Positions 10,877-29,284 of a stretch of DNA of 64,000 nucleotides are shown here, piece after piece; position 1 is the stretch's first letter, and each line of letters begins with the position of its first letter. The notes under the pieces are model-generated. The model ran no database searches and had not been told where the DNA came from. It saw nothing but the letters and a program-made list of their open reading frames with translations. This DNA comes from Spirochaetia bacterium (GTDB lineage: Bacteria; Spirochaetota; Spirochaetia; CAKZLE01): positions 3,232,001 to 3,296,000 of the forward strand of contig OY782041.1 in assembly GCA_963677595.1 (NCBI GenBank), written 5' to 3'. A program made the translations under genes and the position numbers.

Positions 10877-10877
10877 A

Positions 10878-10908: not shown

Positions 10909-11202
10909 CTCTCATGCGAGGTTTTGTTTCGTAACAGGTAGAAGAATATACGGATATACCCATCTAAGTAAAACCATAGATGACAGCTTGCACAAGTAGA
11001 GCGTAAATCGGGAGGACAAGCAGTCTTGTTCTCTCCAATATAACTGGGTAGGGGCTCTCCTCTAGCTCTCGATCCCGACCATGAATCCCCTCATTCCTTT
11101 CACTTTCCTCACTGGGTAAGATAAAGAATTTCACAGCTGTATTGGAGGGCAGTAAAACGATACCATGAGTAGTTGAATTACTTCACATGGAGGTTTTTAC
11201 TG

Positions 11203-13008
11203 ATGAATAAGACGCAACGTTTGCGGCATCTGGCACCACTCGTTTCTCTGCTGGTACTCCTGCTGCTCTGCCTGACAGGCTGTGACCTGATCTCGGGCAT
11301 GCTCGAGGAGAAGCGGGGTTCCCTGCTCCTCGAGTTCACTGATGAAGAAGCAAGGGGAATACCGGTATTCACCCCCGATATCTCGATGGAGATAGACAGC
11401 TATGAGATCTCCGGTACAGGACCGGATGCTGGCGTCATACATGCAGCCGGCATTACTGGTGAGTACCATGTCGTGCAGGAGCTTGCCGTGGGGCTCTGGC
11501 AGTTCACGATCTCAGGACACAATGCTGAAGGACAGAAGGTAGCTGAAGCTACGCTCCCGGTCACGATCAGGAGGAACCAGACGACTGAGGAGGAGGTGAC
11601 CCTCAAACCGCTCGAGGGGCAGGGTAAGATCCTGCTTGATCTGTCATGGATAGACGACCATGACCTGATCACAAATCCCCAGGTCGCGGTTTCAATCCAG
11701 CCATCAGACCTGCAGGTATCACCGGAAGGTCTGGTGATTACCGGAAGCCAGGATGACCGGATACAGCAGCAGATCGAGGTTGATGCCGGTTGGTATCTGC
11801 TCACTGCAGCCATCTTTGACGGGGATCCGGCAGAGTCAGGTAACACAGCGCTCTGGCAGGGCATCTGCTCCGTCAGGATCGTGAAGGACCACGAGACAGA
11901 ACTCTCCCACCAGGTCAGTGAGGACGAGATCAGGATGCAGGGAACCGGGACTGCCTCGGTGCTCATCTCAGAAGATATGCAGAACCAGTTCGAAGTCACC
12001 TATTCCGGTGATGCTGAAGACCTCTACCCTGATGAGAGCGCGACCTTCAGGGTCTCCTCTTCCCACTGTGCCCAAGCCGAGTACCGATGGTACGTGAACG
12101 GCAGATACCAGCCTGATGAACATGGTACAGAGCTTTGCTACCAGTTCCTGACCCCCGGCCACTACCGTATATCGCTTTTTGTCATCGAGAATGGGGCGAT
12201 CTGCGGCTACGACACCTCAGTCGAGGTCCTGACCCCGATACCGGTCACAGGGATCGTGATCGAGGAGGGAAGTACCCTGAGCATGACTGCCGGTATCAGG
12301 GAAGAGCTCCATGCCGTACTCACCCCGTCAGATGCGACAAACAGGGGTATCACGTGGAGCAGCAGCGCCCCCGAGATCATCGCCGTATCAGATGCAGGTG
12401 CCCTTACTTCGATGAGGGCGGGAACAGCGGTCATCACTGCAGCATCAGCAGGTGATCCCGGCATTTCTGCTTCCTGTACCGTGACCTCCGCTTTCTCGGC
12501 TATTGGGGACTATGGACCGGCCGGCGGCAGGGTCTTCTATGTCGATACCGAGGATGCATATCCTGGATGGACCTATATGACAGTCGCTCCCATGACAGAA
12601 GCGAAGGAACTGCCCTGGGGTGCTGACGACCTCGATATGACGGAGACGTATACTGCTATCGGGGCCGGGAAGGGCAATACTGATCGTATCCTCCTCTATC
12701 TAGGCAATAGCACCTACATGAACTCTGCTATCTCTTCATATTCTACGTATGCAGCGAAATACTGTGCAGCCTTCAGTATGAACGGTTATGATGACTGGTT
12801 CCTTCCGTCCCAGGATGAGCTTGGGCTGCTATCACTGCAGTGGTATCCTCTTCAACTTGGAGGGTATGGGAATGGTGGAGGATCACCTGCGTGGTCTTCC
12901 AGTTCCTATGATGGTGACAACGCCCATATGACATACATCATGGGTGGGAGCCAGAGTACTTGGGGAAAATGGGGTACAGCCTTGGCCGTACCGGTAAGAA
13001 GATATTAA
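11203..13008 (+). CDS. Lipoprotein with PKD/Big_2 domains and C-terminal DUF1566 (Lcl, C-type-lectin-fold)-like domain
   Basis: GGAGG RBS; lipobox LTGC; Big_2 'PSDATNRGITWSSS'; C-terminal 'GPAGGRVFY...GYDDWFLPSQDEL...WSSS...VPVRRY'. Confidence 0.8.
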   Translation: MNKTQRLRHLAPLVSLLVLLLLCLTGCDLISGMLEEKRGSLLLEFTDEEARGIPVFTPDISMEIDSYEISGTGPDAGVIHAAGITGEYHVVQELAVGLWQFTISGHNAEGQKVAEATLPVTIRRNQTTEEEVTLKPLEGQGKILLDLSWIDDHDLITNPQVAVSIQPSDLQVSPEGLVITGSQDDRIQQQIEVDAGWYLLTAAIFDGDPAESGNTALWQGICSVRIVKDHETELSHQVSEDEIRMQGTGTASVLISEDMQNQFEVTYSGDAEDLYPDESATFRVSSSHCAQAEYRWYVNGRYQPDEHGTELCYQFLTPGHYRISLFVIENGAICGYDTSVEVLTPIPVTGIVIEEGSTLSMTAGIREELHAVLTPSDATNRGITWSSSAPEIIAVSDAGALTSMRAGTAVITAASAGDPGISASCTVTSAFSAIGDYGPAGGRVFYVDTEDAYPGWTYMTVAPMTEAKELPWGADDLDMTETYTAIGAGKGNTDRILLYLGNSTYMNSAISSYSTYAAKYCAAFSMNGYDDWFLPSQDELGLLSLQWYPLQLGGYGNGGGSPAWSSSSYDGDNAHMTYIMGGSQSTWGKWGTALAVPVRRY

Positions 13009-13156: not shown

Positions 13157-13435
13157 ATGGCAGTAAAAGCAGATACCAGCATGACGATTCGCATGAATCG
13201 GGAGGTGAAGGAGATGGCTCAAAAGATATTCTCAGAGCTTGGCATCGATATGTCCACTGCAGTGAATGTTTTCCTCAGGCAGGTTATCTTCCATAACGGG
13301 TTCCCGTTTGAGGTGAGGCTGAAGACCCCGAACCCCGTGACACGGGCTGCGATGGAATCCGCTGAGAACGATGAGGATATATACGGTCCCTATGATCGTG
13401 TCTCGAGCTTGATGGATGAGCTGAACCAGAAATAG
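13157..13435 (+). CDS. RelB/DinJ-family antitoxin (no adjacent toxin)
   Basis: 'MTIRMNREVKEMAQKIFSELGIDMSTAVNVFLRQ...PFEV...PNPVT' RHH pattern; upstream GTACAT-N10-ATGTAC dyad. Confidence 0.85.
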   Translation: MAVKADTSMTIRMNREVKEMAQKIFSELGIDMSTAVNVFLRQVIFHNGFPFEVRLKTPNPVTRAAMESAENDEDIYGPYDRVSSLMDELNQK

Positions 13436-13534: not shown

Positions 13535-14833
13535 ATGCACATGAAACAGGTATTCAAGGGCGATATCGCCTATAGTAAAAATAAAGAAGAATTATCGGTC
13601 CATCCGGACAGCTTTATCATCGTCTCAGACGGTATCGTCGAGGGGATCTATCCGGTTGTGCCCGAGGAGTACAAGAACCTCCCATTGGTTGATTATACCG
13701 GGAAGCTGATCATCCCGGCCTTCTCCGACCTGCACCTCCATGCCTCCCAGTACTACCAGCGGGGAGTGGGGATGGACAAGCTGCTCCTCGACTGGCTCGA
13801 TACCTACACCTTCCCGCAGGAGAGCGGCTTCGCTGACATGGAGTATGCGAAGGGAGCATATGACCGCTTCACACGGGATCTGATACGCCATGGGACGCTC
13901 CATGCGGCTATCTATACCACCATCCATTATGATGCCTCTGACTACCTCTTCAGGTTATGGGACTCCTTAGGCCTCTACGGGTATATCGGAAAGCTCAACA
14001 TGGACCAGAACTGTCCCGACAGCCTGAAAGAAGATAAGAGCACCTCCATACAGGAGACCGAACGGTTCATCCTCGAACATGGCGGCAGCCCGACGGTGAA
14101 ACCCATCGTCACCCCGCGATTCGCCATCTCCTGCACCGAGGAACTCATTGCCGGGCTAGGTAAGCTGGTGAGGAAGTACCAGGTGCCGGTCCAGACCCAT
14201 CTGTGCGAATCGCGGGAGGAGATAGCTGCAGTCAAGGAGCTCTTCCCTGCCTATTCCTATGATGCGGAGATCTATGAGAAGTACGGGCTCATCGGGAACA
14301 GCCTTGCGATCATGGCTCACTGCATCTACCTGCAGGATGATGATATCAGGGCTATGCACAGCAATGGGTGTGTCGCGGTTCACTGCCCGGACTCCAACAT
14401 CAATGTGACCGCCGGTTTGATGCCGGCAAGGGAACTGTCAGACGGGGGGATGCGGATAGCACTCGGCAGCGACATCGGCGGGGGACACGACATCCCCATC
14501 TACCGGGCAGCCGCACGGGCGATCCAGGTGTCGAAGCTGAGGAGCCTGCTCAACGCAGGTGAGGAGAAGATCGGGCTCCCTGAAGCCTTCCATTTTGCCA
14601 CACGGGCAGGAGGGGAGTGCTTTGGGAAGATGGGAGCCTTCGAGCCCGGGTACCATTTCAACGCCCTGGTGATCGATGACGATGACCTCCAGGGACTTGA
14701 TGTGGGGATACCGGAGCGGATAGAACGGTTCTGCTACATAGGGGATGACCGCAACATAGCTTCCCGCTATGTTAACGGCCGTCTCCTGGAGATCCCTGAA
14801 GTCCCTATCGCGCCTCGGAGAAGCTTGCAGTAA
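13535..14833 (+). CDS. guaD: Guanine deaminase (amidohydrolase family)
   Basis: DLHLHASQY, LLDWLDTYTFPQE, TPRFAISCT, QTHLCES, HCPDSN and GSDIGGG motifs. Confidence 0.85.
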   Translation: MHMKQVFKGDIAYSKNKEELSVHPDSFIIVSDGIVEGIYPVVPEEYKNLPLVDYTGKLIIPAFSDLHLHASQYYQRGVGMDKLLLDWLDTYTFPQESGFADMEYAKGAYDRFTRDLIRHGTLHAAIYTTIHYDASDYLFRLWDSLGLYGYIGKLNMDQNCPDSLKEDKSTSIQETERFILEHGGSPTVKPIVTPRFAISCTEELIAGLGKLVRKYQVPVQTHLCESREEIAAVKELFPAYSYDAEIYEKYGLIGNSLAIMAHCIYLQDDDIRAMHSNGCVAVHCPDSNINVTAGLMPARELSDGGMRIALGSDIGGGHDIPIYRAAARAIQVSKLRSLLNAGEEKIGLPEAFHFATRAGGECFGKMGAFEPGYHFNALVIDDDDLQGLDVGIPERIERFCYIGDDRNIASRYVNGRLLEIPEVPIAPRRSLQ

Positions 14834-16105: not shown

Positions 16106-17077
16106 CTAGGGATTTATAAAGTAGAGTGGAATGGTGCACATCCTGTTGTTCAAGTAGCTCGCTATCGTCTCAAGGCTGTCCGTATGGGCAGCAAGGTCAT
16201 CATCTTCCAGGGCAGCTTCGGCATCATCGAAGTAGCCTTCGAGCGTCTCATCGGTGAATCCCGATACCCACGCAACCTTCTTCAGGTAGCCGAAGAGGTT
16301 GTTGGAGTCCAGTGCCCAGCCCCACCTCGCGATATCGAACTGCTTCGCCTCGAACTCCGTCTTGAAGGTCTCCCAGTCCCGGGTGGTGACAGTCACATCC
16401 GTGACCTTCTCGACGAGTTCCCACTGGCTCTCCATCTCCGCCCCCATCGGGGTGGTGGTATCAGTGCAGAGGAAGTCGAAGCTGAAATAATCATCGTTCT
16501 GGAGTATGGCATCCACCGGATTCCCTTCATAGATACCTTCCTGGTGATCAAGGCCGTCGCGCCCGTAGTAGGTCGGGGGGATGAGGACGATTGCGGAGGT
16601 CCCGTCAGTCGAGGTGTTTGAGATGAGGTTGCCTCGATTGATCGCGCTGGCGAGGGCGCTCCGCACGTTGGCATCCTGCAGTTCAGCCACATCGGAGTTT
16701 ACGTTGACCGCCGCACAGACGATACCCGCCGAGGGGTAGGCGATCTGGATGTCACTGTCTTCAGGAACGAAGAAATGCCTGTCATAGATGGTATCGACAA
16801 ACACGACATGGACGGTGTATTCCCCCTCGGGGATATCCTTGAACTTGATCTTACCGTTCGGTTCGGTGATGAAGAGGTTCCTGCCGTTGATGGCAGGAGT
16901 GATCTTCAGCAAAGTGCGAACCTCGCTCTCGAGGGTCAGCTCCTCAGGGTCAAGGAAGTCCGGGTAGGCTAGTATCGTGACTTCTTTGACAGTCCCGAAG
17001 AGGAAGCATGATGTGACGAGTATGGTCAGCAGTAATGGAATGATGAGGAAGAAGGTGATGCGTTTCCCCATGGTCAT
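16106..17077 (-). CDS. Lipoprotein: small beta-sandwich fused to the C-terminal lobe of a family-5 (OppA-like) solute-binding protein
   Basis: Lipobox VTSC; 'LQDANVRSALASAINR', 'FDIARWGW', 'IPLYF'; AAGGAGG RBS. Confidence 0.65.
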   Translation of the reverse strand: MTMGKRITFFLIIPLLLTILVTSCFLFGTVKEVTILAYPDFLDPEELTLESEVRTLLKITPAINGRNLFITEPNGKIKFKDIPEGEYTVHVVFVDTIYDRHFFVPEDSDIQIAYPSAGIVCAAVNVNSDVAELQDANVRSALASAINRGNLISNTSTDGTSAIVLIPPTYYGRDGLDHQEGIYEGNPVDAILQNDDYFSFDFLCTDTTTPMGAEMESQWELVEKVTDVTVTTRDWETFKTEFEAKQFDIARWGWALDSNNLFGYLKKVAWVSGFTDETLEGYFDDAEAALEDDDLAAHTDSLETIASYLNNRMCTIPLYFINP

Positions 17078-17344
17078 CCTCCTTGTTTATAACGTGTCAG
17101 ATGACCGGGGCGGTGTAAGAGCAGGATTCACTGATGCACAGGTACCATCTGTTCATCCGGCTCTTCATAGTATAACTGACCTGGGGACTGCAGTACATGG
17201 AAGGGCCGGCAGATAAGGAAAATATCTAAGGAGGTGCTTATAAGAGGAGGTAAATACTCTGACACTGCTGGCAATCATGGGCGGGATTATCGCTATTGCT
17301 GCAGCAGCGGTTAAATAAGAAGGTCTGACTTATTCTTGAACCTG

Positions 17345-17411
17345 GAAAAACGTGGGATAATCACGGAATACTCTAGAAAAACGTGATATCTCCACGTTTT
17401 TATGATACACT
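17345..17411 (+). promoter_or_regulatory. Repeat array 1: GAAAAACGTG x2 (31-bp spacing), each part of a CGTG-N7-CACG dyad, then extended -10
   Basis: Repeats at 17345 and 17376; inverted CACGTTTTT at 17393-17401; TGnTACACT at 17403-17411. Confidence 0.65.
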
Positions 17412-17427: not shown

Positions 17428-18732
17428 ATGGAACGGTTGATAGAACGGCAGTTATCTGCCTGGAAGGAGCGTCCGGGGCGCAAGCCCCTGCTGGTAAGCG
17501 GTGTGCGTCAGGTCGGGAAGACCTGGAGCATCACGGACTTCGGGAAGAGGCACTTTGCAGATCTTCTCTATGTCAATCTCGATACGGAACCCGGTCTCTG
17601 TGATATTTTCAGGCGATCCAAAGACCCTGAGAAGATACTCTTTCATCTCTCAGCCCTGAAGGGCAGGTCCTATGATCCGAAGAGGACCCTCATCTTCTTC
17701 GATGAGATCCAGGAATGTAATGAGGCACTGAATTCCCTGAAGTACTTCTGTGAGGCTGATGAAGAGTATTACATCATAGGAGCAGGGTCGTATCTCGGGA
17801 TCACTCTCCCGAAGGGGTCCTCCTTCCCCGTAGGTACAGTCGAGATGCTCGAGATGAAGCCGATGACCTACAAGGAGTTCCTCCTTGCTGCAGGCCAGGG
17901 GATGCTGGTCGATTACATGGAATCCATCGAGACAGTCAGTCCCCTAGCGGAACCCCTGGCTGATACCTTGAGACGGTACCTGCAGGAGTACTACCTCGTC
18001 GGCGGGATGCCTGAGGCGGTCAAGGCCTGGATGGGTAGGAGGGACCTTACCCTGCTCGATTCCGTACAGGTCAATATCATAAACTCCTATTACCGGGATT
18101 TCTCGAAATACCCGCCGAATGACCAGATTCCCAGGATCTTACAGGTCTGGGACTCGATCGTAGCCCAGCTCTCCCGGGAGAACCGGAAGTTCAAGTACAG
18201 CGAGATACGGAAATCGGCTCGGGCCCGTGAGTACGAACAGGCGGTGAACTGGCTGACCGCCGGCCATTACCTGAGCAGGGTGAACCGTGTCTCCTCATGC
18301 CGGATACCACTCAAGGGGTACGAGGACCCGACCCATTTCAAGACCTATATGCCGGATACCGGGTTGTTGAGGAACAGGGCAGACTTCCCGGTCTCCTCGT
18401 TCCTGGAGATGAAAGAGCATGAGAGCATCCCGTTCAAGGGTGCCCTTGCAGAGAACTATGTACTGCAGGAGCTCAAAGCTGTCTATGGGAAGGAGATCTT
18501 CTACTGGACCGGTAAGAACCAGGAGATAGACTTCGTGCTTCAGGCCGGGGATGCACCCATCCCGATCGAAGTGAAAGCCGGGATGAACGTCTCATCCCGA
18601 AGCCTGACAAGAGTCCTGGAACCTATGGATCTCGGTATCAGGTTCTCGATGAGGAACCTGTCCAGGGAGGGAAAGATCCTGAACATACCCCTGCCGCTCG
18701 TCAGTGAGTTCCAGCGGCTGCTGAACTCTTAG
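17428..18732 (+). CDS. AAA_14 ATPase + DUF4143 protein (copy 1)
   Basis: Walker A GVRQVGKT, Walker B FFDEIQ, VGGMPE, DTGLL, C-terminal EIDF...PIEVK; AGGAG RBS before ATG 17428. Confidence 0.9.
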   Translation: MERLIERQLSAWKERPGRKPLLVSGVRQVGKTWSITDFGKRHFADLLYVNLDTEPGLCDIFRRSKDPEKILFHLSALKGRSYDPKRTLIFFDEIQECNEALNSLKYFCEADEEYYIIGAGSYLGITLPKGSSFPVGTVEMLEMKPMTYKEFLLAAGQGMLVDYMESIETVSPLAEPLADTLRRYLQEYYLVGGMPEAVKAWMGRRDLTLLDSVQVNIINSYYRDFSKYPPNDQIPRILQVWDSIVAQLSRENRKFKYSEIRKSARAREYEQAVNWLTAGHYLSRVNRVSSCRIPLKGYEDPTHFKTYMPDTGLLRNRADFPVSSFLEMKEHESIPFKGALAENYVLQELKAVYGKEIFYWTGKNQEIDFVLQAGDAPIPIEVKAGMNVSSRSLTRVLEPMDLGIRFSMRNLSREGKILNIPLPLVSEFQRLLNS

Positions 18733-18738
18733 AACAAC

Positions 18739-18832
18739 TGTAAAAAGGTGCTGATATTGGTCTGAACATGGTGTAAAAAGGTGTTAATCTTCACTAAAAA
18801 ACATAGGAAAAAGGTGCTATATAGTATATAAT
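18739..18832 (+). promoter_or_regulatory. Repeat array 2: AAAAAGGTG x3 at exact 33-bp spacing, then TATAAT
   Basis: Cores at 18742, 18775 and 18808; TATAAT at 18827-18832. Confidence 0.7.
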
Positions 18833-18866
18833 TCTTTTTGAAAGAACTATATAGAAGGTGTCGCGA

Positions 18867-20165
18867 ATGCTGAGAAGGAAGATAGAAAGAAGATTCGAGG
18901 AATGGAGCCGGGATCCAGACAAGAGGGCTCTCCTTGTCTGGGGAGCAAGACAGGTTGGGAAGACCACCTCGGTGAGGACCTTTGCTTCTCAAGCGTATGA
19001 GTGCTTCATCGAGATAAACTTCGAGGAGAAGCCAAGCCTGAAGGCTGTCTTCTCAGGGGATCTGGATGCAGACACCCTGTATGAGAAACTGAGTGCCGCA
19101 GGGCTCGGGGAGCTGAGACCCCACCATACCCTGCTGTTCCTTGATGAGATCCAGTCATGTCCTGAAGCGCGGACAGCATTGAAATTCCTCGTTGAAGATG
19201 GGCGCCTTGATGTTATCGCTTCAGGTTCATTGCTGGGACTCAATTACCGTGATGTCTCCTCCTATCCTGCGGGTTATGAGCAGAAAGTAGAGATGCATTC
19301 CCTCGACTTCGAGGAGTTCCTCTGGGCAAATGATATACCGGTTGAGACCATAACTGCCCTGTACGGGCACTTCCAGGCGGGGACAGCGGTTGACCCCTTC
19401 ATACATGAACGGATGATGGAACTCTTCAAACGGTACATGATAGTCGGAGGAATGCCAGCAGTGGTGGTTGAGTACCTGAAGATGAAGGATATCCAGAGAG
19501 TGATAGAGGTGCAGCAGATGATCCTCTCAAGCTACCGGGATGATATCTCAAAATATGCCGGCAGGGACAAAAATCGTGCAAAGGCAGTCTTTGACTCGAT
19601 CCCCATGCAGCTGATGGAGAAGAACAAGAAATTCAAGCTTGCAGCTGTCCAGCATGGTGCAAAGAACCGGACCTATGAGGATGCGGTCTTATGGCTATCT
19701 GACGCAGGTATAGCAGCATTCTGCTTCAATGTCTCAGAACTCAGGCTCCCCTTCGAGTTGAGTGAGAAACGGAATGCATATAAGTTCTTCCTCTGTGATA
19801 CAGGACTGCTGAGTGCCATGTCCCTGGGGAATGTCCAGGCTGCTATCCTTGCAGGGGAGCTTTCGATAAACGAAGGGGCAGTTACCGAGAATGCCGTTGC
19901 CGACCTCTTGAGAAAAAGAGGGAGATCACTCCATTATTATGACCGGAAAGGGAGACTTGAGATCGATTTCCTCATAGCTGCCAAGGACGGTCCTGTCCTG
20001 GTAGAGGTGAAGTCAGGGAAGGACTACAGGCGGCATGCATCTCTTTCCAATATCCTGAAGGATAGTGATCATGTCATCAGCCGTGCAGTCGTGCTCTGCA
20101 CCGGCAACATGGAATCAGTTGGGAAGGTAACCTACATGCCGCTGTACATGGTCATGTTCCTGTAG
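18867..20165 (+). CDS. AAA_14 ATPase + DUF4143 protein (copy 2)
   Basis: GARQVGKT, FLDEIQ, VGGMPA, DTGLL, EIDF...VEVKSG. Confidence 0.9.
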   Translation: MLRRKIERRFEEWSRDPDKRALLVWGARQVGKTTSVRTFASQAYECFIEINFEEKPSLKAVFSGDLDADTLYEKLSAAGLGELRPHHTLLFLDEIQSCPEARTALKFLVEDGRLDVIASGSLLGLNYRDVSSYPAGYEQKVEMHSLDFEEFLWANDIPVETITALYGHFQAGTAVDPFIHERMMELFKRYMIVGGMPAVVVEYLKMKDIQRVIEVQQMILSSYRDDISKYAGRDKNRAKAVFDSIPMQLMEKNKKFKLAAVQHGAKNRTYEDAVLWLSDAGIAAFCFNVSELRLPFELSEKRNAYKFFLCDTGLLSAMSLGNVQAAILAGELSINEGAVTENAVADLLRKRGRSLHYYDRKGRLEIDFLIAAKDGPVLVEVKSGKDYRRHASLSNILKDSDHVISRAVVLCTGNMESVGKVTYMPLYMVMFL

Positions 20166-20188
20166 GTCCTTCAGTATTGAAGATCCCT

Positions 20189-20280
20189 TGTAAAAATGTG
20201 AATTATAACAAAAGTACAATGGTAAAAATGTAATTTCTTTCATTAATACGATTGTACTTATGTATGCCCCGTGATACGCT
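20189..20280 (+). promoter_or_regulatory. Repeat array 3: GTAAAAATGT x2 plus one degenerate copy at 32-bp spacing, then extended -10
   Basis: TGTAAAAATGTG (20189), GGTAAAAATGTA (20221), TGTACTTATGTA (20253); TGnTACGCT at 20272-20280. Confidence 0.6.
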
Positions 20281-20301
20281 ACTAACAGGGAGGGGTATCA
20301 T

Positions 20302-21642
20302 ATGCGACGATTCAGGATGGATGACCTGTATGCATGGAAGCAGAAACACGATAAGCTGCCGCTCATTCTTCAGGGTGCAAGACAGGTCGGTAAGACCTGG
20401 CTTATGCAGGAGTTCGGGAGGCAGGCTTATGACCAGGTGGTCTATGTCAACTTCGAGAACAATGAGCGGATGCAGGCACTGTTCTCCAGGACCCTCGATA
20501 TCCCGACACTCATCATGGGAATTGAGGCGGAGTTCTCAGTCAGCCTGCAGCCTGAGACCGTCCTGATCATCTTCGATGAGATCCAGGAGGTCCCGAAAGC
20601 CATTACCTCGCTGAAGTATTTCAGTGAGTACCCCATCGCGTATGATATCATCTGTGCCGGCTCTCTTCTGGGGATCGGGATGGAAGAACGGATCTCGTTC
20701 CCTGTTGGCAAGGTCTCGTTCCTGCAGGTCGCTCCCATGAACTTCGAGGAGTTCCTCGAAGGGATCGGTGAGCAGAAGATGGTTGGAGTCCTTAGAGGCG
20801 ATAACCCGGTATTGCTCGAGACGTTCAGGGAGAAACTCATCCAACTGCTCAAGGTGTATCTCATCGTAGGGGGTATGCCCCGGGTCGTCTCCGAATACGC
20901 CGATTCCGGCTCCCTGGTCCAGGTCAGGGAACTGCAAGCGGACCTGCTGCGGAGTTTCGAACTCGACTTCTCGAAGCATGCCCCGAACGGGGAGATCCCG
21001 AGGATCTTCCAGATATGGAGGAGCATACCTGCCCAGTTGGCCAGGGAACAGAGAAAATTCCTCTATAGACTCATACAGGAGGGGGCACGGGCGAAAGCAT
21101 ACGAGAAGGGCTTAGTATGGCTGCAGCAGGCAGGGATCATCCGGAAGATCTCGAGGATAACAAAACCAGCGCTGCCGCTCTCAGCCTATGAGGACCCCAA
21201 AGCGTTCAAGCTCTTCTTCCTCGATGTAGGCTTGCTCGGTGCCATGAGCGGTCTGCCTGGGAAGGTCATCCTGGACTGGGATGCACTGTTCCAGGAGTTC
21301 AAGGGGGCCCTGACAGAACAGTATGTCATACAGGAACTGGGATCTACTGAGTTCCCGGCTCTCTGGTATTGGAGTGCCCAACGGGCTCCCGCGGAGGTTG
21401 ATGCACTCCTCGAGTATGAGGGCAGCATCATCCCCCTGGAGATCAAGGCAGGGGAGAACCTGAGATCGAAGAGCCTGAAGTCCTATTATGACCGCTATAC
21501 CCCGGCAGTCGCTGTACGAGCCTCCCTCTCTGATCTCCGCGATGAGGGGTGGATGTTCAATATACCCTTGTTTGCGGTCTCCCAGCTCGGGAGGCGCCTC
21601 GAGAAGTATATCCACCATCAGGAAAGATACGTCACTCCTTAG
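20302..21642 (+). CDS. AAA_14 ATPase + DUF4143 protein (copy 3)
   Basis: GARQVGKT, IFDEIQ, VGGMPR, DVGLL, EVDA...LEIKAG; GGAGG RBS. Confidence 0.9.
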   Translation: MRRFRMDDLYAWKQKHDKLPLILQGARQVGKTWLMQEFGRQAYDQVVYVNFENNERMQALFSRTLDIPTLIMGIEAEFSVSLQPETVLIIFDEIQEVPKAITSLKYFSEYPIAYDIICAGSLLGIGMEERISFPVGKVSFLQVAPMNFEEFLEGIGEQKMVGVLRGDNPVLLETFREKLIQLLKVYLIVGGMPRVVSEYADSGSLVQVRELQADLLRSFELDFSKHAPNGEIPRIFQIWRSIPAQLAREQRKFLYRLIQEGARAKAYEKGLVWLQQAGIIRKISRITKPALPLSAYEDPKAFKLFFLDVGLLGAMSGLPGKVILDWDALFQEFKGALTEQYVIQELGSTEFPALWYWSAQRAPAEVDALLEYEGSIIPLEIKAGENLRSKSLKSYYDRYTPAVAVRASLSDLRDEGWMFNIPLFAVSQLGRRLEKYIHHQERYVTP

Positions 21643-23147
21643 AGCGACTGCAGTTCAGCGAATAGCTCCCGGTTCTGCAGATAGGCCCGCTCGAAGATCC
21701 GCTGCAGCTTCCGGTATGCCTGGTGCTGGTCCATGACAGGGTGGATCACGGACGCCGTCGGGTTCATCCGCTCGATGATGCTGAAGTCGGGATAGAGCCC
21801 GCATCCCACGCCGCCGATGACGGCAGCCCCCATACTGGTGGACTCCTCGAGGTATCTCGGGACCTCAAGGGGAAGTCCCGTGACCGTCGACAGCAGTGTG
21901 ACGAGATTCCCCATCCTCGCCCCGCCTCCGGTGACCCTGCAGCGTTCGGTCTCCTGGTGATGTGAGAATATCTCGTAGGAGTAGTTGAGATTCATGGCGA
22001 TCCCCTCATGGATCGCATGGGCGATCTCATCGGCCGTGGTGTTCAGTCCCAGGCCTAAGAGGACTCCCTTCGCCTCGGTGTCCCACCAGGGGGTACGTTC
22101 CCCCATGAGGTAGGGGAGGAAGAGCAGCCCGCCGCTCCCCGGCGGGATATCCTCCGTCTTCTCCTCTAGCTCTGAGTAGATCGTGTCGTTCCCGGCTGGG
22201 GCGAACCGCTTCAGCAGGGAATCAACGTACCACTTGAAGCTGCTCCCTGCCGTCTGCATGGTCCCGCAGGGGTGGTAGAGCCCCGGTACCGGGTGGGCGA
22301 AGGTGAAGACCTTCATGGAAGGATCTTGCAGCGGTTCGGTGGTGGTCATCGAGGTCCAGGCTGAGGACCCGATATTGGTGTAGGTGATCCCCGGGGCGAT
22401 CGAGCCTGCCCCGATGGTGGCACAGCCGCCGTCCCCGGCACCGGCAACGACCGGGGTGCCCTCGAGCAGTCCGGTGAGCTTCGCAGCCTCTCCCGTCACA
22501 TACCCCACGATGTCAGTCGACTGGTGGATATCGGGCATCAGGGATGCATCGATGCCGGCAGCTGCCAAGATTTCCTCTGACCACCGGTCATGCAGCAGGT
22601 CCATGGCATTGGTCCCCGAGGCATCATTGCGCTCGGTGATGAAGGCACCGGTAAGCTTGCAGATCATGTAGTCCTTGGCGTTAAGCATCTTATGGGTCCT
22701 GGAGAAGATCTCCGGCTCATGGTCCCTGATCCACATTAGCTTCTCGATGGAGTAGGCGGAACTCGGACGGTGACCGGTGAGCCGGTAGATATGCTCGAAC
22801 CCCAATACATCGATGAGCTGGTTGGTCTCCTCTTCTGCACGCTGGTCGCAGTAGAGGAGGTGGGGACGAAGATGGTTCCCCTCCCGGTCGACGCAGAGAC
22901 AGCCCTGCATCTGGCCGCTGAAGGAGACCGCCGCGATATCGCGGGGGTCGATCTGGGTGCATATCTCACGCGTACAGGAGCAGACTGCCTCCCCCCAGGC
23001 ATCAGGGTCCTGTTCAGCCCAGTTGGAGTTGAAGAAGTGTGTATCGTAGGCATGCGTGAAAGAGCAGACGAGTTCCCCGGACTCATTGAAGGCGGTGACC
23101 TTGTTCCCCGAGGTGCCGAGGTCATGGGCGATGATATATGAAGGCAT
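21639..23147 (-). CDS. FGGY-family carbohydrate kinase (xylulokinase-like)
   Basis: HDLGTSG, FSGQMQG, DASGT, GAGDG, FLPYLMGERTP, TGGGA motifs. Confidence 0.9.
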   Translation of the reverse strand: MPSYIIAHDLGTSGNKVTAFNESGELVCSFTHAYDTHFFNSNWAEQDPDAWGEAVCSCTREICTQIDPRDIAAVSFSGQMQGCLCVDREGNHLRPHLLYCDQRAEEETNQLIDVLGFEHIYRLTGHRPSSAYSIEKLMWIRDHEPEIFSRTHKMLNAKDYMICKLTGAFITERNDASGTNAMDLLHDRWSEEILAAAGIDASLMPDIHQSTDIVGYVTGEAAKLTGLLEGTPVVAGAGDGGCATIGAGSIAPGITYTNIGSSAWTSMTTTEPLQDPSMKVFTFAHPVPGLYHPCGTMQTAGSSFKWYVDSLLKRFAPAGNDTIYSELEEKTEDIPPGSGGLLFLPYLMGERTPWWDTEAKGVLLGLGLNTTADEIAHAIHEGIAMNLNYSYEIFSHHQETERCRVTGGGARMGNLVTLLSTVTGLPLEVPRYLEESTSMGAAVIGGVGCGLYPDFSIIERMNPTASVIHPVMDQHQAYRKLQRIFERAYLQNRELFAELQSL

Positions 23148-23459: not shown

Positions 23460-24767
23460 ATGGAAAAATCTCAGTCAGATTTCAGATATAATACTGGTGA
23501 AGCGAAAGTGCCGTGGGCTGCCGTCGGAGAGTCCTACAATGCAGATGATATTCTTCATATCGTTAAGTTCCTTCTCCAGGGAGAAGGATCAGAGTATCAG
23601 CAGAATCTTGATAACGTGGAACAAGCTCTGAAAGGATTGGCTGCATATGGAAGTTCGCCTGGAAAGTTGTCACTTGGTGAACATGTGCAGCAGCTTGAGA
23701 GAGCAGTTGACGCCTATCTGGGAGTAGAAGAGAGTGCCTTTGTTACCAATGCGACAGCTGGATTTGAGATTGCGTTCAAATATGCGAATCTTCAGGCAGG
23801 AGATGAAGTCCTCATTCCTGCTATAACCTTTATCGCTACCATGGCGTACCCCCTGTCTGTCGGTGCGAAGGTCGTATTCGTCGATGTTGATCCAGTTACG
23901 TTGAATATGGATCCAGTCGATATGGCTAGGAAGATCACGGAAAAGACTAAGATGGTCGTTCCTGTCCATATCGGGGGATATCCTGTTGATATGGATCCCG
24001 TCATGGAATTGGCTGAGAAGCATGATCTAATCGTGCTCGAAGATGCCGCACATGCTTTCGGGGGCACGTACAAAGGCAGACCGTTAGGTACGATAGGCCA
24101 CTTCGGTGCATTCAGTTTTCACGAGGTAAAGAATATAACCTCTTTTGGCGAGGGAGGCATCCTAGTCTCATCCCTGCCCTTCAAGAGCGAGCTTAAGAAA
24201 GCACGGTTCCTCGGCCTTGATATCTCAACGGCTATTCCTGACTGGCTGTATGATGTCACGGCATTAGAGGGAAAAGAGGGGTACTTTGTAGGCCACAACT
24301 CTTCTAGCACTGAAATCCAGGCAATCGGGCTGGAACGGCAGCTGGAAAGGAATGATGATATCCTGAAGTCGAGAAAAGATAATGTCCTGTATCTTAATGA
24401 AAAATTGTCAGGGTGCGATGCTGTCAGAGTGCAGCCGGTCGGGACAGATGGCAGTGAGCCGACCTTTCATCTGTACCAGCTGCAGATAGACCCGGAAAAA
24501 GCAGGTGGGGATATCCGGGAGCTCAGAAAGAAACTGGAAGAACGAAGTGTCACTACTATCCCACACTTTGCTCCCTTGTACCATTTTTCCATCATCGAGC
24601 AACTTGGGTATGACCGGGAAGAGATCGCTGCAGGTTGCCCCGTGGCCGAGGATGTGTTCCGTCATAGATTCACACACCTGCCAATCTATGGCTTGAGCCG
24701 GGGGCAGCTTGATTACATGGCTGAGGCGATCCTGAGTTCAATCGAAGAGATGCAGCATGCAAAATGA
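23460..24767 (+). CDS. DegT/DnrJ/EryC1/StrS-family PLP-dependent sugar aminotransferase
   Basis: NATAG, GDEVLIPAITFIAT, EDAAHA, FSFHEVKNIT-x-x-GEGG (catalytic Lys present). Confidence 0.9.
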   Translation: MEKSQSDFRYNTGEAKVPWAAVGESYNADDILHIVKFLLQGEGSEYQQNLDNVEQALKGLAAYGSSPGKLSLGEHVQQLERAVDAYLGVEESAFVTNATAGFEIAFKYANLQAGDEVLIPAITFIATMAYPLSVGAKVVFVDVDPVTLNMDPVDMARKITEKTKMVVPVHIGGYPVDMDPVMELAEKHDLIVLEDAAHAFGGTYKGRPLGTIGHFGAFSFHEVKNITSFGEGGILVSSLPFKSELKKARFLGLDISTAIPDWLYDVTALEGKEGYFVGHNSSSTEIQAIGLERQLERNDDILKSRKDNVLYLNEKLSGCDAVRVQPVGTDGSEPTFHLYQLQIDPEKAGGDIRELRKKLEERSVTTIPHFAPLYHFSIIEQLGYDREEIAAGCPVAEDVFRHRFTHLPIYGLSRGQLDYMAEAILSSIEEMQHAK

Positions 24768-25884
24768 GGGAAGCATCATGACAGGGAGAGAGCGGGTGAT
24801 GAATACATTCGCCCGCCAGGACTGCGACAGGATCCCTCTATTTGATGTAGTGAACAGCCCTGATCTCTACTCTTCTGTTCTCGGGGTCGAGAACACCTGG
24901 TCGGACGGTGACCGAGCTGCAGAACTTGCAAAAACGCTTGGACTCGATGCAGTTATGGTCCCGGTCAGCTCCTACACGGGGCTTATGAAGCAGGAAAATG
25001 AATGGATAGATCCACATAACTTCACTGACAGGTTCGGGGTCGGGTTCACCATCACAGACACCTCCTGGCCCTTGGGATTTGCAGTAGGTGAGGTGAAGCT
25101 CGACCGGGATTTCCTTGAACATATCAGGAAGACCGTGACAATCCTGGAAACGGACATGAAGCCAATTGAGGATGCCCTGGCTGTTGCCCATAGTGGTGAT
25201 GCTGAAGAAATAGCCGTGTTTGGTGGTATCAGGAGTGCCTTCAGCTTCTTGTCTATCTCCGGGGGGCTTGTTGCCTTATCCATGCTGATCTACGAGGATC
25301 CGGAACTGCTTCACGACCTGGTGGATGCTGCGACGGAATATTGGACTGAAGTCGGGTTGAAGATGATAGCCAAAGGGGTTGATGCCCTGTATGTCGCTAA
25401 TGATATGGGGATGAACGGCTCTACTATCATTTCACCAGATCATCTCCGTGAGTTCTTTCTACCGGCATTCTTCCGGCAGTGCCGTGCCTGGAAGTCAGCC
25501 GGGGTACGAGTTATTCTTCATTCCTGCGGGAATATTGAATCAATCCTCCCAGACCTGGCGGAATCAGGAGTCATTGACGGGTTGAACAACCTGCAGAGTC
25601 AGGCTGGAATGGATATCACATCGGTGAAAGAGCGGTATGGTCGTGAGTGGACCCTGATTGGGAATGTCGACGCCACAAACGTGATGACAAGCAGTGATAC
25701 AACGGTAATCGATCATGCCGTATCCGAGGTGATCGCCGCAGCTGCCGATGGTGGCGGCCTGATCCTTGCAACCGACCACTCCTTTCATCAGGGGATCCCA
25801 GAGAAGAATATCCTGCATTTCATCGAGCAGGCCAAGCTGCAGGGAGCTGAGTACTGCGAAACATCAAGAGGTTTCTCAATATGA
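24757..25884 (+). CDS. Uroporphyrinogen decarboxylase-family (MtaA/CmuA-like) protein 1
   Basis: MTGRERV, LHSCGN, LIGNVD, GGGLILATDH...IPEKNI. Confidence 0.8.
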   Translation: MQNEGSIMTGRERVMNTFARQDCDRIPLFDVVNSPDLYSSVLGVENTWSDGDRAAELAKTLGLDAVMVPVSSYTGLMKQENEWIDPHNFTDRFGVGFTITDTSWPLGFAVGEVKLDRDFLEHIRKTVTILETDMKPIEDALAVAHSGDAEEIAVFGGIRSAFSFLSISGGLVALSMLIYEDPELLHDLVDAATEYWTEVGLKMIAKGVDALYVANDMGMNGSTIISPDHLREFFLPAFFRQCRAWKSAGVRVILHSCGNIESILPDLAESGVIDGLNNLQSQAGMDITSVKERYGREWTLIGNVDATNVMTSSDTTVIDHAVSEVIAAAADGGGLILATDHSFHQGIPEKNILHFIEQAKLQGAEYCETSRGFSI

Positions 25885-26945
25885 ATGGGAGAGAACGAGT
25901 ATTCAATGCAGTACATGGATATCCTGTGGACCACCCCGTTGCTGCGCCGTATATGGGGAATTTCTCAATCACTGCAGCACGAAAGAACCTCTCTTCCTGT
26001 TATGTGGACTCATCCAGCATGGCGGAGGCTCAACTGGCTGCATGGAACTTGTTCAGGCAGGATGTGATTGTGGTACAGTCAGACAACTACTACATGGCAG
26101 AGGCGTTTGGTGCCCCTGTCACATATGAAGAGGACGATCTGCCTTCCCTGATGGGACATGTCTGTACGACCACAGATGATGTCCTCGAACTCAAACCGAT
26201 AGAAAACGGCAACGGTGGCCGTATGCCGGTATATATAGAAGCCATAGCAAACATCCGAAAAGAGGTTGGGGATGCCGCAGCCATTCGAGGCTGCGGCACC
26301 GGCCCCTTTGTACTGGCAGGTCACCTGCTTGGGATTGAACGGCTCCTGCTCTGGATTGCAGAAACGGAAGCTGAGATCGTTGATCACTCGAAGGAGCTTG
26401 ACCACCTATTCCATGTCGGAGTTGAGACCCTCGTAGGATATGCTGCAGAACAATTGAAAGCTGGTGCGGATATCATCCAGCTCGCGGATTCATTAGCTTC
26501 ACTCAATGTGATCTCTCCAAAAGTCTACAGGAAATATGTATTTCCGTATGAGAAGGAGTTCTTTCGACAGATGAAGCCGTTATGTGCAACCTATGGGGCT
26601 ATGTCGCTGCTCCATATCTGCGGCGACAATACAAGCGTATTCGAAGACTATGCAACGGTTGGTGCGGATATCGTCGCTATCGACCATGCTGCTGACCTCT
26701 CTGAGGCTGTCAGGGTAATAAACGACCGGGCCGCGATAATTGGGAATATTGATCCTGCAGGGATCCTGCTCAACGGGACCCCGTCTGATACCTGCAAATT
26801 GGCATGTGCCTGTCTTGATGCTGTACTTCCCCATAGGTACCTGCTCGGGTCAGGTTGTGAATTGTCAGTCAGGACGCCGATAGAAAACGTAAAGGCGATG
26901 TTGGAGGCAGCGAGGATGTACACACCATGTGAGGCATTGAAATGA
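25881..26945 (+). CDS. Uroporphyrinogen decarboxylase-family (MtaA/CmuA-like) protein 2
   Basis: MNGRERV, GPFVLA, LHICGD, IGNIDP, GSGCE...TPIENV. Confidence 0.85.
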   Translation: MNGRERVFNAVHGYPVDHPVAAPYMGNFSITAARKNLSSCYVDSSSMAEAQLAAWNLFRQDVIVVQSDNYYMAEAFGAPVTYEEDDLPSLMGHVCTTTDDVLELKPIENGNGGRMPVYIEAIANIRKEVGDAAAIRGCGTGPFVLAGHLLGIERLLLWIAETEAEIVDHSKELDHLFHVGVETLVGYAAEQLKAGADIIQLADSLASLNVISPKVYRKYVFPYEKEFFRQMKPLCATYGAMSLLHICGDNTSVFEDYATVGADIVAIDHAADLSEAVRVINDRAAIIGNIDPAGILLNGTPSDTCKLACACLDAVLPHRYLLGSGCELSVRTPIENVKAMLEAARMYTPCEALK

Positions 26946-28123
26946 GTAAGGAAACAAGCAGGGAGCTGCTCGAACGCGCTTTGGCTCATCAGGAATGCAG
27001 TCGAGTGCCGTATGATCAATCCAGCAGGTCTTCCGCAATTGAGGAAGAACCGTATATACGATTGAAACAGGCTTTGGGCTTGGAGACCGAAACCACCTGT
27101 TATCTTCGTTCGCATGCCGACATCGAGGAGCCGGTGAGAAACCTCCTTGGGATCGATACGGAATTTGTCCGTTGTTTTCCTGAACATCACTGGGTCAGAT
27201 CAGGGAAGCAGGGGAACTGTTTTACCGATGCCTGGGGTGTCCCATGGCTCCAGAGGGAAGACAGCTACTATTATGAGATAGATAGTTATCCCCTGAAGGA
27301 CACAGAATATACTGACATCCTATCACAGAAGTGGACTCCCCTCATATCGAAAGAGACTGCCGTGCAGTTGCGATGTAATGCAGAATTCCTGTATGAAGCC
27401 CATGACAGTGCCCTATTCTCCGATCAGATAGGGGCAGGGATCTTTGAACGGGCTTGGTACCTGCGGGGCCTCGAGCAGTTCCTCATGGATATGATGCTTG
27501 AGAAGAACCAGGTCCATAGATATCTGGAAAAGATACTGCAGCATCAAATGGAAGGGTATGCCACGCTCTTTGAAGCGGTCGGACCATACATAACAGGTAT
27601 CCTCCTTACCGATGATCTTGCCACGCAGGAGAGCCTCCTATTCTCTCGGGAACTGTATCGGGAAATGATATTTCCCTACCAGAAACGACTTCTTGAGTTC
27701 ATCAACGCATTCGGGAAGAAAGTCATCTTTCACAGTTGTGGTGCGGTTTCACCGCTTATCCCTGACCTGCTTGAGGCTGGGGTAGAGATCCTTCATCCAA
27801 TACAGCATTCAGCCAGGGGTATGAACCCGGTCCAGATAAAACATGAATACGGCAGGGACCTGACGCTCTGGGGGGCAGGGATGGATACCTCTGTACTCCA
27901 GACGGCTAGCCCTGAAGAGATTGAGTCCTCTGTTACGAGGGACCTGTACGAACTACAAAAAGATGGTGGGTTCGTCTATACCACGACCCATTGTATCCAG
28001 CCGGGAACACCTCCTGAGAACATCCTCGCGATGACAGCAGCATTACGGGGCAGTTCCCTCTCGGAGATGCTTGCCGAAGCTCCATTATGCGAACTGCTGG
28101 AAGGGGTGTCCCATGGCGAATAA
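26942..28123 (+). CDS. Uroporphyrinogen decarboxylase-family protein 3
   Basis: DAWG, FERAWYLRGLE, DDLATQ, FHSCG, HCIQPGTPPENI. Confidence 0.85.
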   Translation: MSKETSRELLERALAHQECSRVPYDQSSRSSAIEEEPYIRLKQALGLETETTCYLRSHADIEEPVRNLLGIDTEFVRCFPEHHWVRSGKQGNCFTDAWGVPWLQREDSYYYEIDSYPLKDTEYTDILSQKWTPLISKETAVQLRCNAEFLYEAHDSALFSDQIGAGIFERAWYLRGLEQFLMDMMLEKNQVHRYLEKILQHQMEGYATLFEAVGPYITGILLTDDLATQESLLFSRELYREMIFPYQKRLLEFINAFGKKVIFHSCGAVSPLIPDLLEAGVEILHPIQHSARGMNPVQIKHEYGRDLTLWGAGMDTSVLQTASPEEIESSVTRDLYELQKDGGFVYTTTHCIQPGTPPENILAMTAALRGSSLSEMLAEAPLCELLEGVSHGE

Positions 28124-29213
28124 TCATATGGTTAGGGTGGACTGCATTGGCCTGAAGCATTTCTGTTGTGAGGTGTTCAAGAAGCTTGGTATGTCTGAAG
28201 GCCAGGCCGAGGACAGTGCAGATATCCTGGTATCTGCTGATATGCGGGGAATATCAAGTCATGGGGTTGCCCGCCTGTGGAGGTATGTGAATGGGGTCAG
28301 GAACGGCGTGATGGATCCCCATACAGAGAGTCGGGTCGTTCATGAGACTTCGATCTCCAAGGTCATTGATGCCCAAGGATCGATCGGTTTGAGCCTCAGT
28401 CGTAACGTCATGAAAGATGTCATACAGATGGCGAAAGGTTCAGGGTTCGCCGCGGCATCCGTACGGGATTCGAATCATTTCGGGATAGCGGGGTATTACG
28501 CCATGATGGGATTACCAGAGGATATGATCGGCATCGCAATGACCAATACTGCCGCTCTTGGTGTACCCACATTCGGGCGGGATGCCCAGTTCGGGACGAA
28601 CCCCTTGGCAATAGCGATACCTGCAGGGACGATGCCTCCCTTCGTCCTTGATATGGCTACCACCGTGGTCACGCGCGGCAAGGTTGAAAACTACAATCGG
28701 GAAGACACACCCCTGCCGCCAGGATGGGCAGTCAATACCCAAGGGGAATGTACCTCGGATGCGAGGGCTCTCCTGGAGGACATGTTGTATCAGAGAGGAG
28801 GGGGGATCCTCCCCCTTGGGGGGCTCGGGGAAGCGCTTGGCGGCCATAAAGGCTTCGGGCTGGGTGTCCTCGTTGATATTCTGAGTGCGGTCAGTTCCGG
28901 TGGAGTCTTCGGCAAGTCGGTCATGGACAGCAAGGAGACATCTGCCCGTGTCTGCCATTTCTTCGCTGCAATCAGGATCGATCTGTTCCGTGATCCTGAA
29001 GCCTTCAAATCGGATATGGACAGTCTACTGCGGGAGATCACAGAGGCGAGACCCGCAAAGGGCAGGGAACGAGTCTACTATGCAGGCCTCAAAGAGCATG
29101 AACATACCCTAAACAGTAGTAAGGACGGGATCCCGGTATCGGAGATTGTCTGGAATAATCTCGTGGAGATCGGGAGGGATTTACATATAAGCCTGCCTGT
29201 GCTGAAGAGTTGA
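28113..29213 (+). CDS. Ldh_2-family (AllD/YiaK/ComC-like) oxidoreductase
   Basis: RGISSHG, SNHFGIAGYY, GTNPLA, LDMAT, GHKGFGL. Confidence 0.9.
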   Translation: MANNHMVRVDCIGLKHFCCEVFKKLGMSEGQAEDSADILVSADMRGISSHGVARLWRYVNGVRNGVMDPHTESRVVHETSISKVIDAQGSIGLSLSRNVMKDVIQMAKGSGFAAASVRDSNHFGIAGYYAMMGLPEDMIGIAMTNTAALGVPTFGRDAQFGTNPLAIAIPAGTMPPFVLDMATTVVTRGKVENYNREDTPLPPGWAVNTQGECTSDARALLEDMLYQRGGGILPLGGLGEALGGHKGFGLGVLVDILSAVSSGGVFGKSVMDSKETSARVCHFFAAIRIDLFRDPEAFKSDMDSLLREITEARPAKGRERVYYAGLKEHEHTLNSSKDGIPVSEIVWNNLVEIGRDLHISLPVLKS

Positions 29214-29284
29214 TATGGAAGCAAGGTCATCCCGGGTGCAGAACTATGTCCGGAATGACTTGAACATAATACATGGAGGATTTT

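Follow-up and report, generated by a model that had tools for sequence, protein, structure and literature searches.

Why do three divergent genes of one protein family stand in a row, in one orientation, each behind its own set of short DNA repeats, and what do these repeats do for the genes that follow them? The genes in question, called g1, g2 and g3, lie between positions 17428 and 21642 of a 64,000-nucleotide stretch of a Spirochaetia bacterium genome (assembly GCA_963677595.1, contig OY782041.1, positions 3,232,001 to 3,296,000 of the forward strand), which is called the window below. Their products have an AAA_14 ATPase domain followed by a DUF4143 domain and belong to the family known as PDC-S01 in PADLOC and as COG1373. 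The three genes are of independent ancestry, their repeat boxes travel with them, and together they occupy a slot that varies between strains. The best explanation, over which our confidence is evenly divided, is that the proteins are self-binding, probably self-repressing, ATPase-gated conflict nucleases. The arrays of repeats are the most informative feature of the locus.

Three genes, each behind its own array

The features of the locus, all on the + strand, are as follows.

17342-17401, + strand: array 1, two palindromic units AAAAACGTG-N7-CACG(TTTTT), 31 bp from start to start; candidate g1 operator
17428-18732, + strand: g1, AAA_14+DUF4143 (PDC-S01) protein of 434 residues (Pfam and PADLOC matches)
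18739-18816, + strand: array 2, three AAAAAGGTG boxes with a 33-bp period; candidate g2 operator
18867-20165, + strand: g2, AAA_14+DUF4143 (PDC-S01) protein of 432 residues, of a subclade unlike that of g1 and g3 (Pfam and PADLOC matches, trees)
20189-20264, + strand: array 3, AAAAATGT(G/A) boxes with a 32-bp period; candidate g3 operator
20302-21642, + strand: g3, AAA_14+DUF4143 (PDC-S01) protein of 446 residues (Pfam and PADLOC matches)

The original prediction described three co-oriented genes of about 430-450 codons with intact Walker A and B motifs and C-terminal E-x-D...E-x-K patterns, and all of this is present as described. AAA_14 and then DUF4143 are found in each protein, both above the curated Pfam cut-offs, and the PADLOC PDC-S01 models match the three proteins over nearly the full profile (best E-values of 3.8e-154, 1.5e-153 and 5.7e-163 for g1, g2 and g3). 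No NCBIfam model matches the trio above its cut-off. The Walker A motifs read GVRQVGKT, GARQVGKT and GARQVGKT, the Walker B motif is DEIQ, and the C-terminal motifs are EIDF..IEVK, EIDF..VEVK and EVDA..LEIK. The identity to g1 is 33% for g2 and 38% for g3, so that the trio is indeed divergent and holds no recent duplicates, as had been judged by eye.

The gaps before g2 and g3 are 134 and 136 bp long, have a GC content of 0.31 and 0.34, and are occupied by the arrays. In array 1, AAAAACGTG stands at 17346 and 17377 and an inverted CACGTTTTT at 17393. Array 2 has AAAAAGGTG at 18742, 18775 and 18808. Array 3 has AAAAATGT(G/A) at 20192 and 20224 with a third, decayed copy near 20256, and it holds a 26-bp inverted repeat between 20208 and 20263. 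The periodic scores of arrays 1 to 3 correspond to p=0.033, 0.016 and 0.016 (60 dinucleotide shuffles each). Repeats lie 5' of every gene of the trio and none lies 3' of g3. Within the 4.3-Mb genome, the paired site of each array is found before its own gene only. The three arrays have the half-site consensus AAAAA-N-GT(G/A) in common. The claim that every array begins 7-24 bp past the stop codon of a preceding gene is correct for g2 (7 bp) and g3 (24 bp), which follow a paralog, but before g1 there is only the stop codon of a remnant reading frame. This remnant is a hydrophobic frame of 24 codons without a start codon (17244-17318, + strand), with a ribosome-binding-like AAGGAGG ahead of it (the whole stretch being 17229-17318). 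Its end lies 24 bp upstream of array 1, it occurs once in the genome, and it is possibly a decayed gene of a small membrane peptide.

The predicted structure gives some clues as to how such proteins could recognize DNA. An AlphaFold2 (AF2) model calculated from an alignment of 117 sequences has a pLDDT (predicted local distance difference test) of 91; a model from a 3-sequence alignment had a pLDDT of 47 and was not usable. Residues 1-319 best match two archaeal ATPases, 2qen (Z 16.7, root-mean-square deviation 4.7, 269 residues aligned) and 2fna (Z 15.4, root-mean-square deviation 4.4, 269 residues). Plant NB-ARC and Orc1/Cdc6 proteins come next, MuB is also among the matches, and Foldseek agrees; the rows of the fold search cover residues 1-321. 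A sequence search of solved structures gave a P-loop match only, and an atlas search with residues 225-320 found winged-helix clusters only at 0.78-0.80, below the first match, which is a lead at best. From the secondary structure of the model, g1 would consist of a nucleoside triphosphatase (NTPase) domain at about residues 1-200 and a winged helix at about residues 231-307, with residues 266-278 as the putative recognition helix. The predicted fold is thus STAND-like: NTPase, helical domain and winged helix, followed by the nuclease motif. The succession of a P-loop NTPase and helical and winged-helix domains that marks the STAND-Cdc6-Orc group is present in the model, and this layout is described in the available text of PMC4599002 and 10.1101/2022.07.19.500537. 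An NLR/Avs-type STAND sensor was considered and rejected, because the proteins have 432-446 residues, contain only AAA_14 and DUF4143, and lack any TPR, LRR or WD40 repeat domain. The C-terminal PD-(D/E)xK motif of g1 comprises E342, D368, E381 and K383, with equivalents in g2 and g3. The family has been classed as PD-(D/E)xK, of unknown function (PMC3424549).

Independent arrival in a variable slot

The ancestry of the trio was analyzed with a quick LG+G4 tree of 32 rows, namely 13 paralogs and 19 chosen homologs, in which the members of the trio each cluster with sequences from other genera or families. The approximately unbiased (AU) test rejects monophyly of the trio (p=1.3e-5) and a pairing of g1 with g3 (p=3.7e-7), and the trio is accordingly non-sister in the very phylogeny that had been proposed as a check. 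Tandem gene duplication was rejected with the first of these values (AU p=1.3e-5), as the adjacent copies form no single clade. Orthologs in other families are 62-67% identical to g1 and g2, compared to 33-38% inside the trio. None of the 15 loci of the nearest homologs has a syntenic neighbor in common with the window. An ortholog of the neighboring FGGY kinase in genome G005 (71% identity) has no family gene behind it, and the block is missing beside the guanine deaminase orthologs of G001 and G002. With the queries used, the block was not found in five family-level relatives, none of which is a close relative with both flanks. A tandem pair of the present genome is located on separate contigs with other neighbors in G002; some paralogs retain a neighbor within the genus.

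The edges of the block and the junction within it are listed here.

16106-17077, - strand: left neighbor, divergent, lipoprotein with a weak SBP_bac_5 match; outside the cassettes
18723-18731, no strand: strain-variable junction, left edge of the g2 cassette (contigs of run X1)
21639-23147, - strand: right neighbor, convergent, FGGY carbohydrate kinase, whose stop codon overlaps the last codons and stop of g3

In run X1, which contains strain variants, one contig departs from g1 at 18722 and another joins at 18731, each for at least 255 letters, and 20-letter probes of these extra letters are absent from the present genome. A protein, P0001, that is 98% identical to g1 and is encoded on a 4.36-Mb contig, ends exactly as the first X1 contig predicts. 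Close variants of g2 and g3 are also present on a 4.36-Mb contig; the X1 run and the source of P0001 may be one sample. The X1 contigs and the C terminus of P0001 therefore indicate that a sister strain has other DNA at the g1/g2 junction, and hence that one-gene cassettes fill a variable slot here. The g2 cassette has its left edge where its array starts. No contig joint skips a whole cassette, the contigs showing presence and not absence.

The AU rejection, the unrelated contexts of the orthologs and the strain-variable junction all bear out the original prediction that independently arrived, stand-alone cassettes have accumulated here. Its suggestions of a special site tied to the neighboring catabolic cluster, and of homing to one site, found no support. 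Nothing marks the site as special, since 57 genes of the family are distributed over all ten tenths of the chromosome, and there is no common target, no duplication around the trio and no near-identical copy that would point to homing. Its further proposal, defence genes that differ in specificity, would need anti-phage activity, and the single phage challenge published for a PDC-S01 gene gave a negative result. Several mobile arrangements were examined for the trio and rejected: an insertion sequence or transposon (no near-identical copies and no terminal inverted repeats or common ends around g1-g3), an integron cassette array (no tyrosine recombinase among the 46 window proteins scanned with Pfam), and an insertion with long target duplication (no direct repeat of more than 30 bp on both sides). 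The best duplication scores around the trio were 9.5-13.9, against a 99% null of 15.0.

Footprints of movement are seen elsewhere in the family, at a minority of loci (5/57 and 4/77 above the 99% null). In G002 lacI is followed by a family gene of another clade, at a site that is empty in G001, a member of the same genus (L120:1808-3240 versus L121:7184-7700). Behind this family gene lies a decayed copy, 85 bp long, of the lacI 3' end (56/85 identical), and the stop codon of the family gene falls inside that copy. Two of the 57 paralogs of the present genome (1098670-1099959 and 1753248-1754660 of G000:C1) are bracketed by near-perfect copies of their own upstream arrays, of 75-80 and 52 bp, and so is the locus L054. 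In a set of 41 genomes, the number of family matches per genome runs from 0 to 53. Homologs were found at 72 loci of a viral collection, in 59 of 72,556 plasmid records and in 9 of 50,697 phage records; with the query used, the family therefore looks mainly chromosomal.

A lone RelB-type antitoxin gene (13157-13435, + strand) is present in the left part of the window, and no RelE partner of at least 80 residues is encoded between it and the guanine deaminase-like gene. Loose contig ends at 13020 and 13541 in runs X1 and X2 make the RelB locus look like another variable slot.

Array periods, protein clades and a predicted recognition helix

An iterated profile search found 57 paralogs in the genome, all of them full length. 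The identity to the nearest paralog is 64% at most, with a median of 42%. A translated search of the genome found no decayed copy, the only fragment being a 32-residue piece identical to part of one paralog. Eight adjacent family pairs are present where 0.88 are expected, a number reached in none of 20,000 simulations (our own crude calls of 3,628 genes were used), and several of these pairs combine members of different clades. The downstream gene is convergent for 61% of the family genes and for 30% of controls. Elsewhere on G000:C1, seven family genes lie within 27 kb (3141574-3168582), and a second trio (4005951-4010163) has members of three different clades.

Arrays also precede many other members of the family. 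Periodic arrays scoring at least 16 stand before 25 of the 57 paralogs, compared to 29 among 585 upstream regions of controls matched for AT content (Fisher p=6e-15), and a periodic or palindromic signal above the 95th percentile of the controls precedes 39/57 paralogs versus 53/585 controls. Arrays are 2-6 boxes long. Mapped on a quick tree of the 57 paralogs, the period follows the clade: it is 23 bp in 7/7 members of one clade, 31-34 bp in 12/13 of a second, which includes all three genes of the trio, and 39-41 bp in 10/10 of a third, where nine arrays have p<0.05. The odd member of the 31-34-bp clade has a period of 16, half of 32. In a fourth group, single palindromes situated around the -35 region take the place of a periodic array. 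The association extends to other genomes, in locus sets that include close relatives: a period of 31-34 bp was found at 111 of 159 loci of the trio clade (42 not significant, 6 other), and a period of 23 bp at 75 of 85 loci of the 23-bp clade.

Phased repeats also occur in this genome before a SoFic gene (period 40, G000:C1 near 1068674, L431) and before two Schlafen/AlbA_2-HATPase_c_4 genes (periods 21 and 20, near 3887280, L438, and 1658467, L444), whose products, like that of the SoFic gene, have possible C-terminal DNA-binding parts. Private arrays may thus mark a wider class of one-gene cassettes.

The boxes move together with the genes that they precede. Three orthologs of g1 with 62% identity (L202-L204) have the same palindromic unit upstream, in differing flanks, and three of the four g2 orthologs with 64-67% identity (L143, L106 and L144) have AAAAAGGTG three times upstream. 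Box similarity climbs with protein identity from 0.18 to 0.58 in the 32-bp clade and from 0.08 to 0.62 in the 23-bp clade. So that recognition could be told from shared descent, covariation was measured by comparing box similarity with identity in 15-residue windows while the identity of the rest of the protein was held fixed. In the trio clade, where 140 of 172 loci have an array and 109 were kept once duplicates above 85% had been removed, the covariation peaks at residues 256-280 (r=0.15-0.17), with R267 as the top column, and the helix has p of 0.016-0.049 at 75-70% clustering. In the 23-bp clade, where 83 of 92 loci have an array and 70 passed the filter, the peak covers residues 246-260 in the numbering of that clade, and an hhalign alignment places these on the same recognition helix. 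The helix is the top window there in 12/12, 10/12 and 8/12 resamples at 90, 80 and 70% clustering, with p of 0.007-0.066 over all windows. The strongest argument that the proteins bind their arrays directly is that both clades single out the same predicted DNA-binding helix, and it lends this suggestion moderate support.

The catalytic residues are conserved unevenly. The G and K of Walker A, the E of Walker B and the nuclease residue E342 are kept in 57/57 paralogs; the remaining nuclease residues are kept as D in 52 and E in 42. Glutamine replaces this second acidic residue in 14 of the 57 (the ten genes of the 39-41-bp clade and relatives), mostly with loss of the K as well, and the site in these paralogs appears to be altered or inactive.

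Probable self-repression, a proposed role in conflict, and the alternatives

A scheme that accommodates these results is as follows. The winged helix quite probably recognizes the box, with the protein acting as a dimer or small oligomer whose footprint would set the period of the clade; 32-33 bp correspond to three helical turns. It is rather likely, though less so, that occupancy of the last box blocks the -35 region, and the resulting negative feedback would keep a DNA-cleaving protein low and make the cassette portable to any intergenic gap. By our own scoring, a candidate -35 hexamer lies on the last box of each gene, at 17383, 18804 and 20252, and at 54 of 87 loci of the family the start of the -10 hexamer falls between -10 and +19 bp relative to the end of the array. 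We are slightly more doubtful than confident about the last step, in which the nuclease would be a conditional conflict effector: the nucleotide state of the STAND-like ATPase would act as the switch, and invading DNA, a DNA-mimic protein or chromosome damage that disturbs the bound state would release the enzyme. For their arrival the cassettes would depend on horizontal transfer and on recombination by the host, without an enzyme of their own, and they would pile up in permissive slots, that of the trio being one.

A number of observations weigh against this scheme. The boxes of the three arrays differ mainly at one base, which makes cross-binding possible. A consensus promoter scan found no sigma-70 site within the three arrays, and the overlap of -35 hexamers with arrays across the family (79/87 loci versus 75 expected) is near chance, so that repression rests on the analogy with AbiEi-type autoregulation as presented in the available text of PMC7319586. 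Neither a periodic nor a palindromic signal exceeds the control threshold before 18 of the 57 paralogs, and L007, a 64% ortholog of g2, has a different box. The covariation is weak and sensitive to clustering: in the trio clade the helix is no longer the top window at 65-60% clustering (0/60 resamples at 60%, p=0.98), and the signal of the 23-bp clade fades at 60-55%; the permutations ignore relatedness, which limits the covariation to the moderate support given above. The defence part of the scheme has difficulties of its own. Only 39/57 paralogs retain the last residue of the nuclease motif, K. Roughly 12 of 94 flanking genes are of defence or toxin-antitoxin type (Fic, AbiE, Septu, Wadjet, HEPN or similar), which speaks for a defence role, but the count has no genome-wide background, and the rest, which are most of the neighbors, are metabolic or unassigned. 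In the consulted part of 10.1101/2024.09.26.614923, one PDC-S01 gene is among eight candidates challenged with T4, T5 and T7 and is outside the four protective ones.

The alternatives differ in whether the array serves movement, restrains a toxin or is read by these proteins at all. A doubtful one is a minimal element that mobilizes itself: the protein would assemble on the array as on a transposon end or on iterons, the ATPase would oligomerize and the nuclease would nick, and host repair would copy or insert the cassette, sometimes with a long target duplication. The gain and loss of single genes, the variation in copy number, the decayed lacI copy in G002, the array copies that bracket two paralogs and L054, and the presence of Orc1/Cdc6 and MuB among the fold matches agree with such an element. 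It is difficult to reconcile with the lack of recent copies (identity of 64% at most) and of decayed ones, the one-sided arrays without a common end sequence, the absence of a duplication around the trio and its rarity at other loci, and the scarcity of plasmid and phage homologs with the query used. That the trio arose in place, by tandem duplication of one resident gene whose copies diverged and now serve a housekeeping role beside the sugar cluster, is hardly credible. The trio does belong to one 13-member clade with a common half-site consensus, but the AU test rejects a common origin, orthologs in other families are closer than the trio members are to each other, the block is missing in relatives next to their orthologs of the kinase or the guanine deaminase, and other tandems combine different clades. 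This reading is refuted unless a larger mixture-model tree joins the trio.

Quite unlikely, too, is a one-gene addiction module with DNA as the antidote, in which the array would hold the protein inactive and its loss or destruction, by loss of the cassette or by phage degradation of the chromosome, would free a cell-killing nuclease. It would account for 57 intact, mutually distant copies with none decayed and no partner gene, for a private array that occurs once in the genome and moves together with its gene, and for 2-6 boxes, which is more than simple repression requires. However, a few boxes could hold only a few molecules, empty sites and genomes with 0 copies occur, and missing pseudogenes are equally expected under ordinary selection. 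The specificities are also not strictly orthogonal, because the boxes of two paralogs in the 23-bp clade resemble each other. An extension of this idea to the whole family, that PDC-S01 genes are one-gene selfish or guard modules in which the array replaces the antitoxin, with a winged-helix code, a clade-specific oligomer geometry (23, 32-33 and 40-41 bp) and DNA cut on displacement, is unlikely. If the array did act as the antitoxin, the 57 distant, intact copies in one genome would be explained, and thousands of natural protein-box pairs would be available. Finally, the arrays may not be read by these proteins, being sites of host regulators, bent-DNA promoter elements or by-products of slippage inherited with the gene. 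A-tract-rich boxes in helical phase could bend DNA, the covariation between box and protein may stem from shared descent and weakens under clustering, and phased repeats precede a few other genes as well. This is nevertheless improbable: dozens of distinct boxes in one genome would require dozens of regulators, the period tracks the protein clade across phyla, and the spacers diverge whereas the cores and the period are retained, many of the units being palindromic.

The closest known relatives are the PDC-S01 proteins themselves, to which the trio is related by full-length profile matches, by its single-gene organization and by the fusion of an ATPase to a PD-(D/E)xK domain. The PDC-S01 literature, as far as its text was available, gives no function, cis element or subfamily structure; arrays, clade periods and the link between helix and box are features found here. 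The proteins belong to a known family, and the cis element is the part not found in print: upstream arrays were not found in the literature on DUF4143, PDC-S01 and COG1373 that was covered, most subscription papers and the supplements of the PADLOC preprint being outside it. New features are the three periods on the tree of one genome, the covariation of helix and box in two clades, the 57 intact copies without decay and the strain-variable junction. The candidate status of PDC-S01 derives from genomic context, and its name does not appear in the main text of the preprint in the form available (10.1101/2024.01.29.577857). The family is very common (available parts of PMC12988326 and PMC13356809), and the first of these ranks it fourth in frequency among the defence types of prokaryotes. 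COG1373 is among the genes shared horizontally in the gut (PMC10782964). The accessible text of PMC4406477 reports a Thermus member, near a CRISPR locus, that is 6.6-fold up with a plasmid present, which is weak evidence.

Other systems resemble the trio in part. The wHTH (winged helix-turn-helix) extension defines the STAND-Cdc6-Orc group, and an NACHT-REase is toxic once switched on (10.1101/2022.07.19.500537, in the part available). The NTPases of this group (SSO1545, 2fna; PAB2304, 2qen; Orc1/Cdc6 on origin DNA, 2qby and 2v1u; NB-ARC, NACHT and Avs proteins) have the same module of NTPase, helical domain and winged helix. The trio differs from them in lacking a TPR, LRR or WD40 sensor and in having a C-terminal nuclease motif, and the identity is 12-16%. 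Leipe et al. reportedly noted in 2004 that the archaeal 'MJ/PH/SSO' STAND families show lineage-specific expansion and have nuclease domains. Autoregulated toxin-antitoxin promoters, such as those of AbiEi and Rv2827c, are bound at inverted repeats and repressed by a product of the conflict locus (PMC7319586, text in part). These systems have two genes and a separate antitoxin, whereas here the ATPase, the putative DNA-binding helix and the nuclease are in one chain, whose binding is inferred. Restriction-modification genes are nuclease genes that are mobile although they have no recombinase, and they may leave duplications of more than 30 bp (PMC2853133, in the part consulted), a likeness that concerns the one G002 footprint. 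Here, there is no methylase partner, no duplication around the trio and no restriction-like avoidance of the half-sites in the genome (observed/expected 15/11.9, 10/13.9 and 8/9.5). In plasmid iteron-Rep pairs, helically phased repeats lie next to the gene of a winged-helix protein and have lineage-private specificity. Unlike these, the present genes are chromosomal and their proteins have an ATPase and a nuclease motif; no sign of a replication origin or of self-directed replication was met, and no search aimed at it was made.

It is of significance that PDC-S01 is among the most counted 'defence systems' in surveys, and a cognate DNA site makes the family testable. One locus supplies a 3 x 3 binding matrix and a named helix to swap. 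Given a cognate array, assays that use foreign promoters may miss activity. If the genes are selfish or self-regulating modules, the defence counts of surveys are inflated; if they are guards released from the array, a new sensing logic is involved. Either way, the family would be a large natural library of winged-helix/box pairs.

The remainder of the window contains a catabolic cluster (23460-39447, + strand) with a DegT aminotransferase, URO-D-like proteins, two sets of ABC transporters, a sialidase-like BNR protein and a DHDPS-family lyase. In the left part (2164-13008, + strand), three open reading frames without a Pfam match are followed by a 1,875-residue surface protein with FN3, FG-GAP and PKD domains and by an Ig/Lcl-like lipoprotein. 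A very deeply covered contig of run X4 has a match to 35 bp of an amidohydrolase gene (14666-14700), which is probably a chance similarity to an abundant sequence. An ISAs1-type transposase gene (DDE_Tnp_1 and associated domain) adjoins a Fic gene at 46927-49358 (+ strand).

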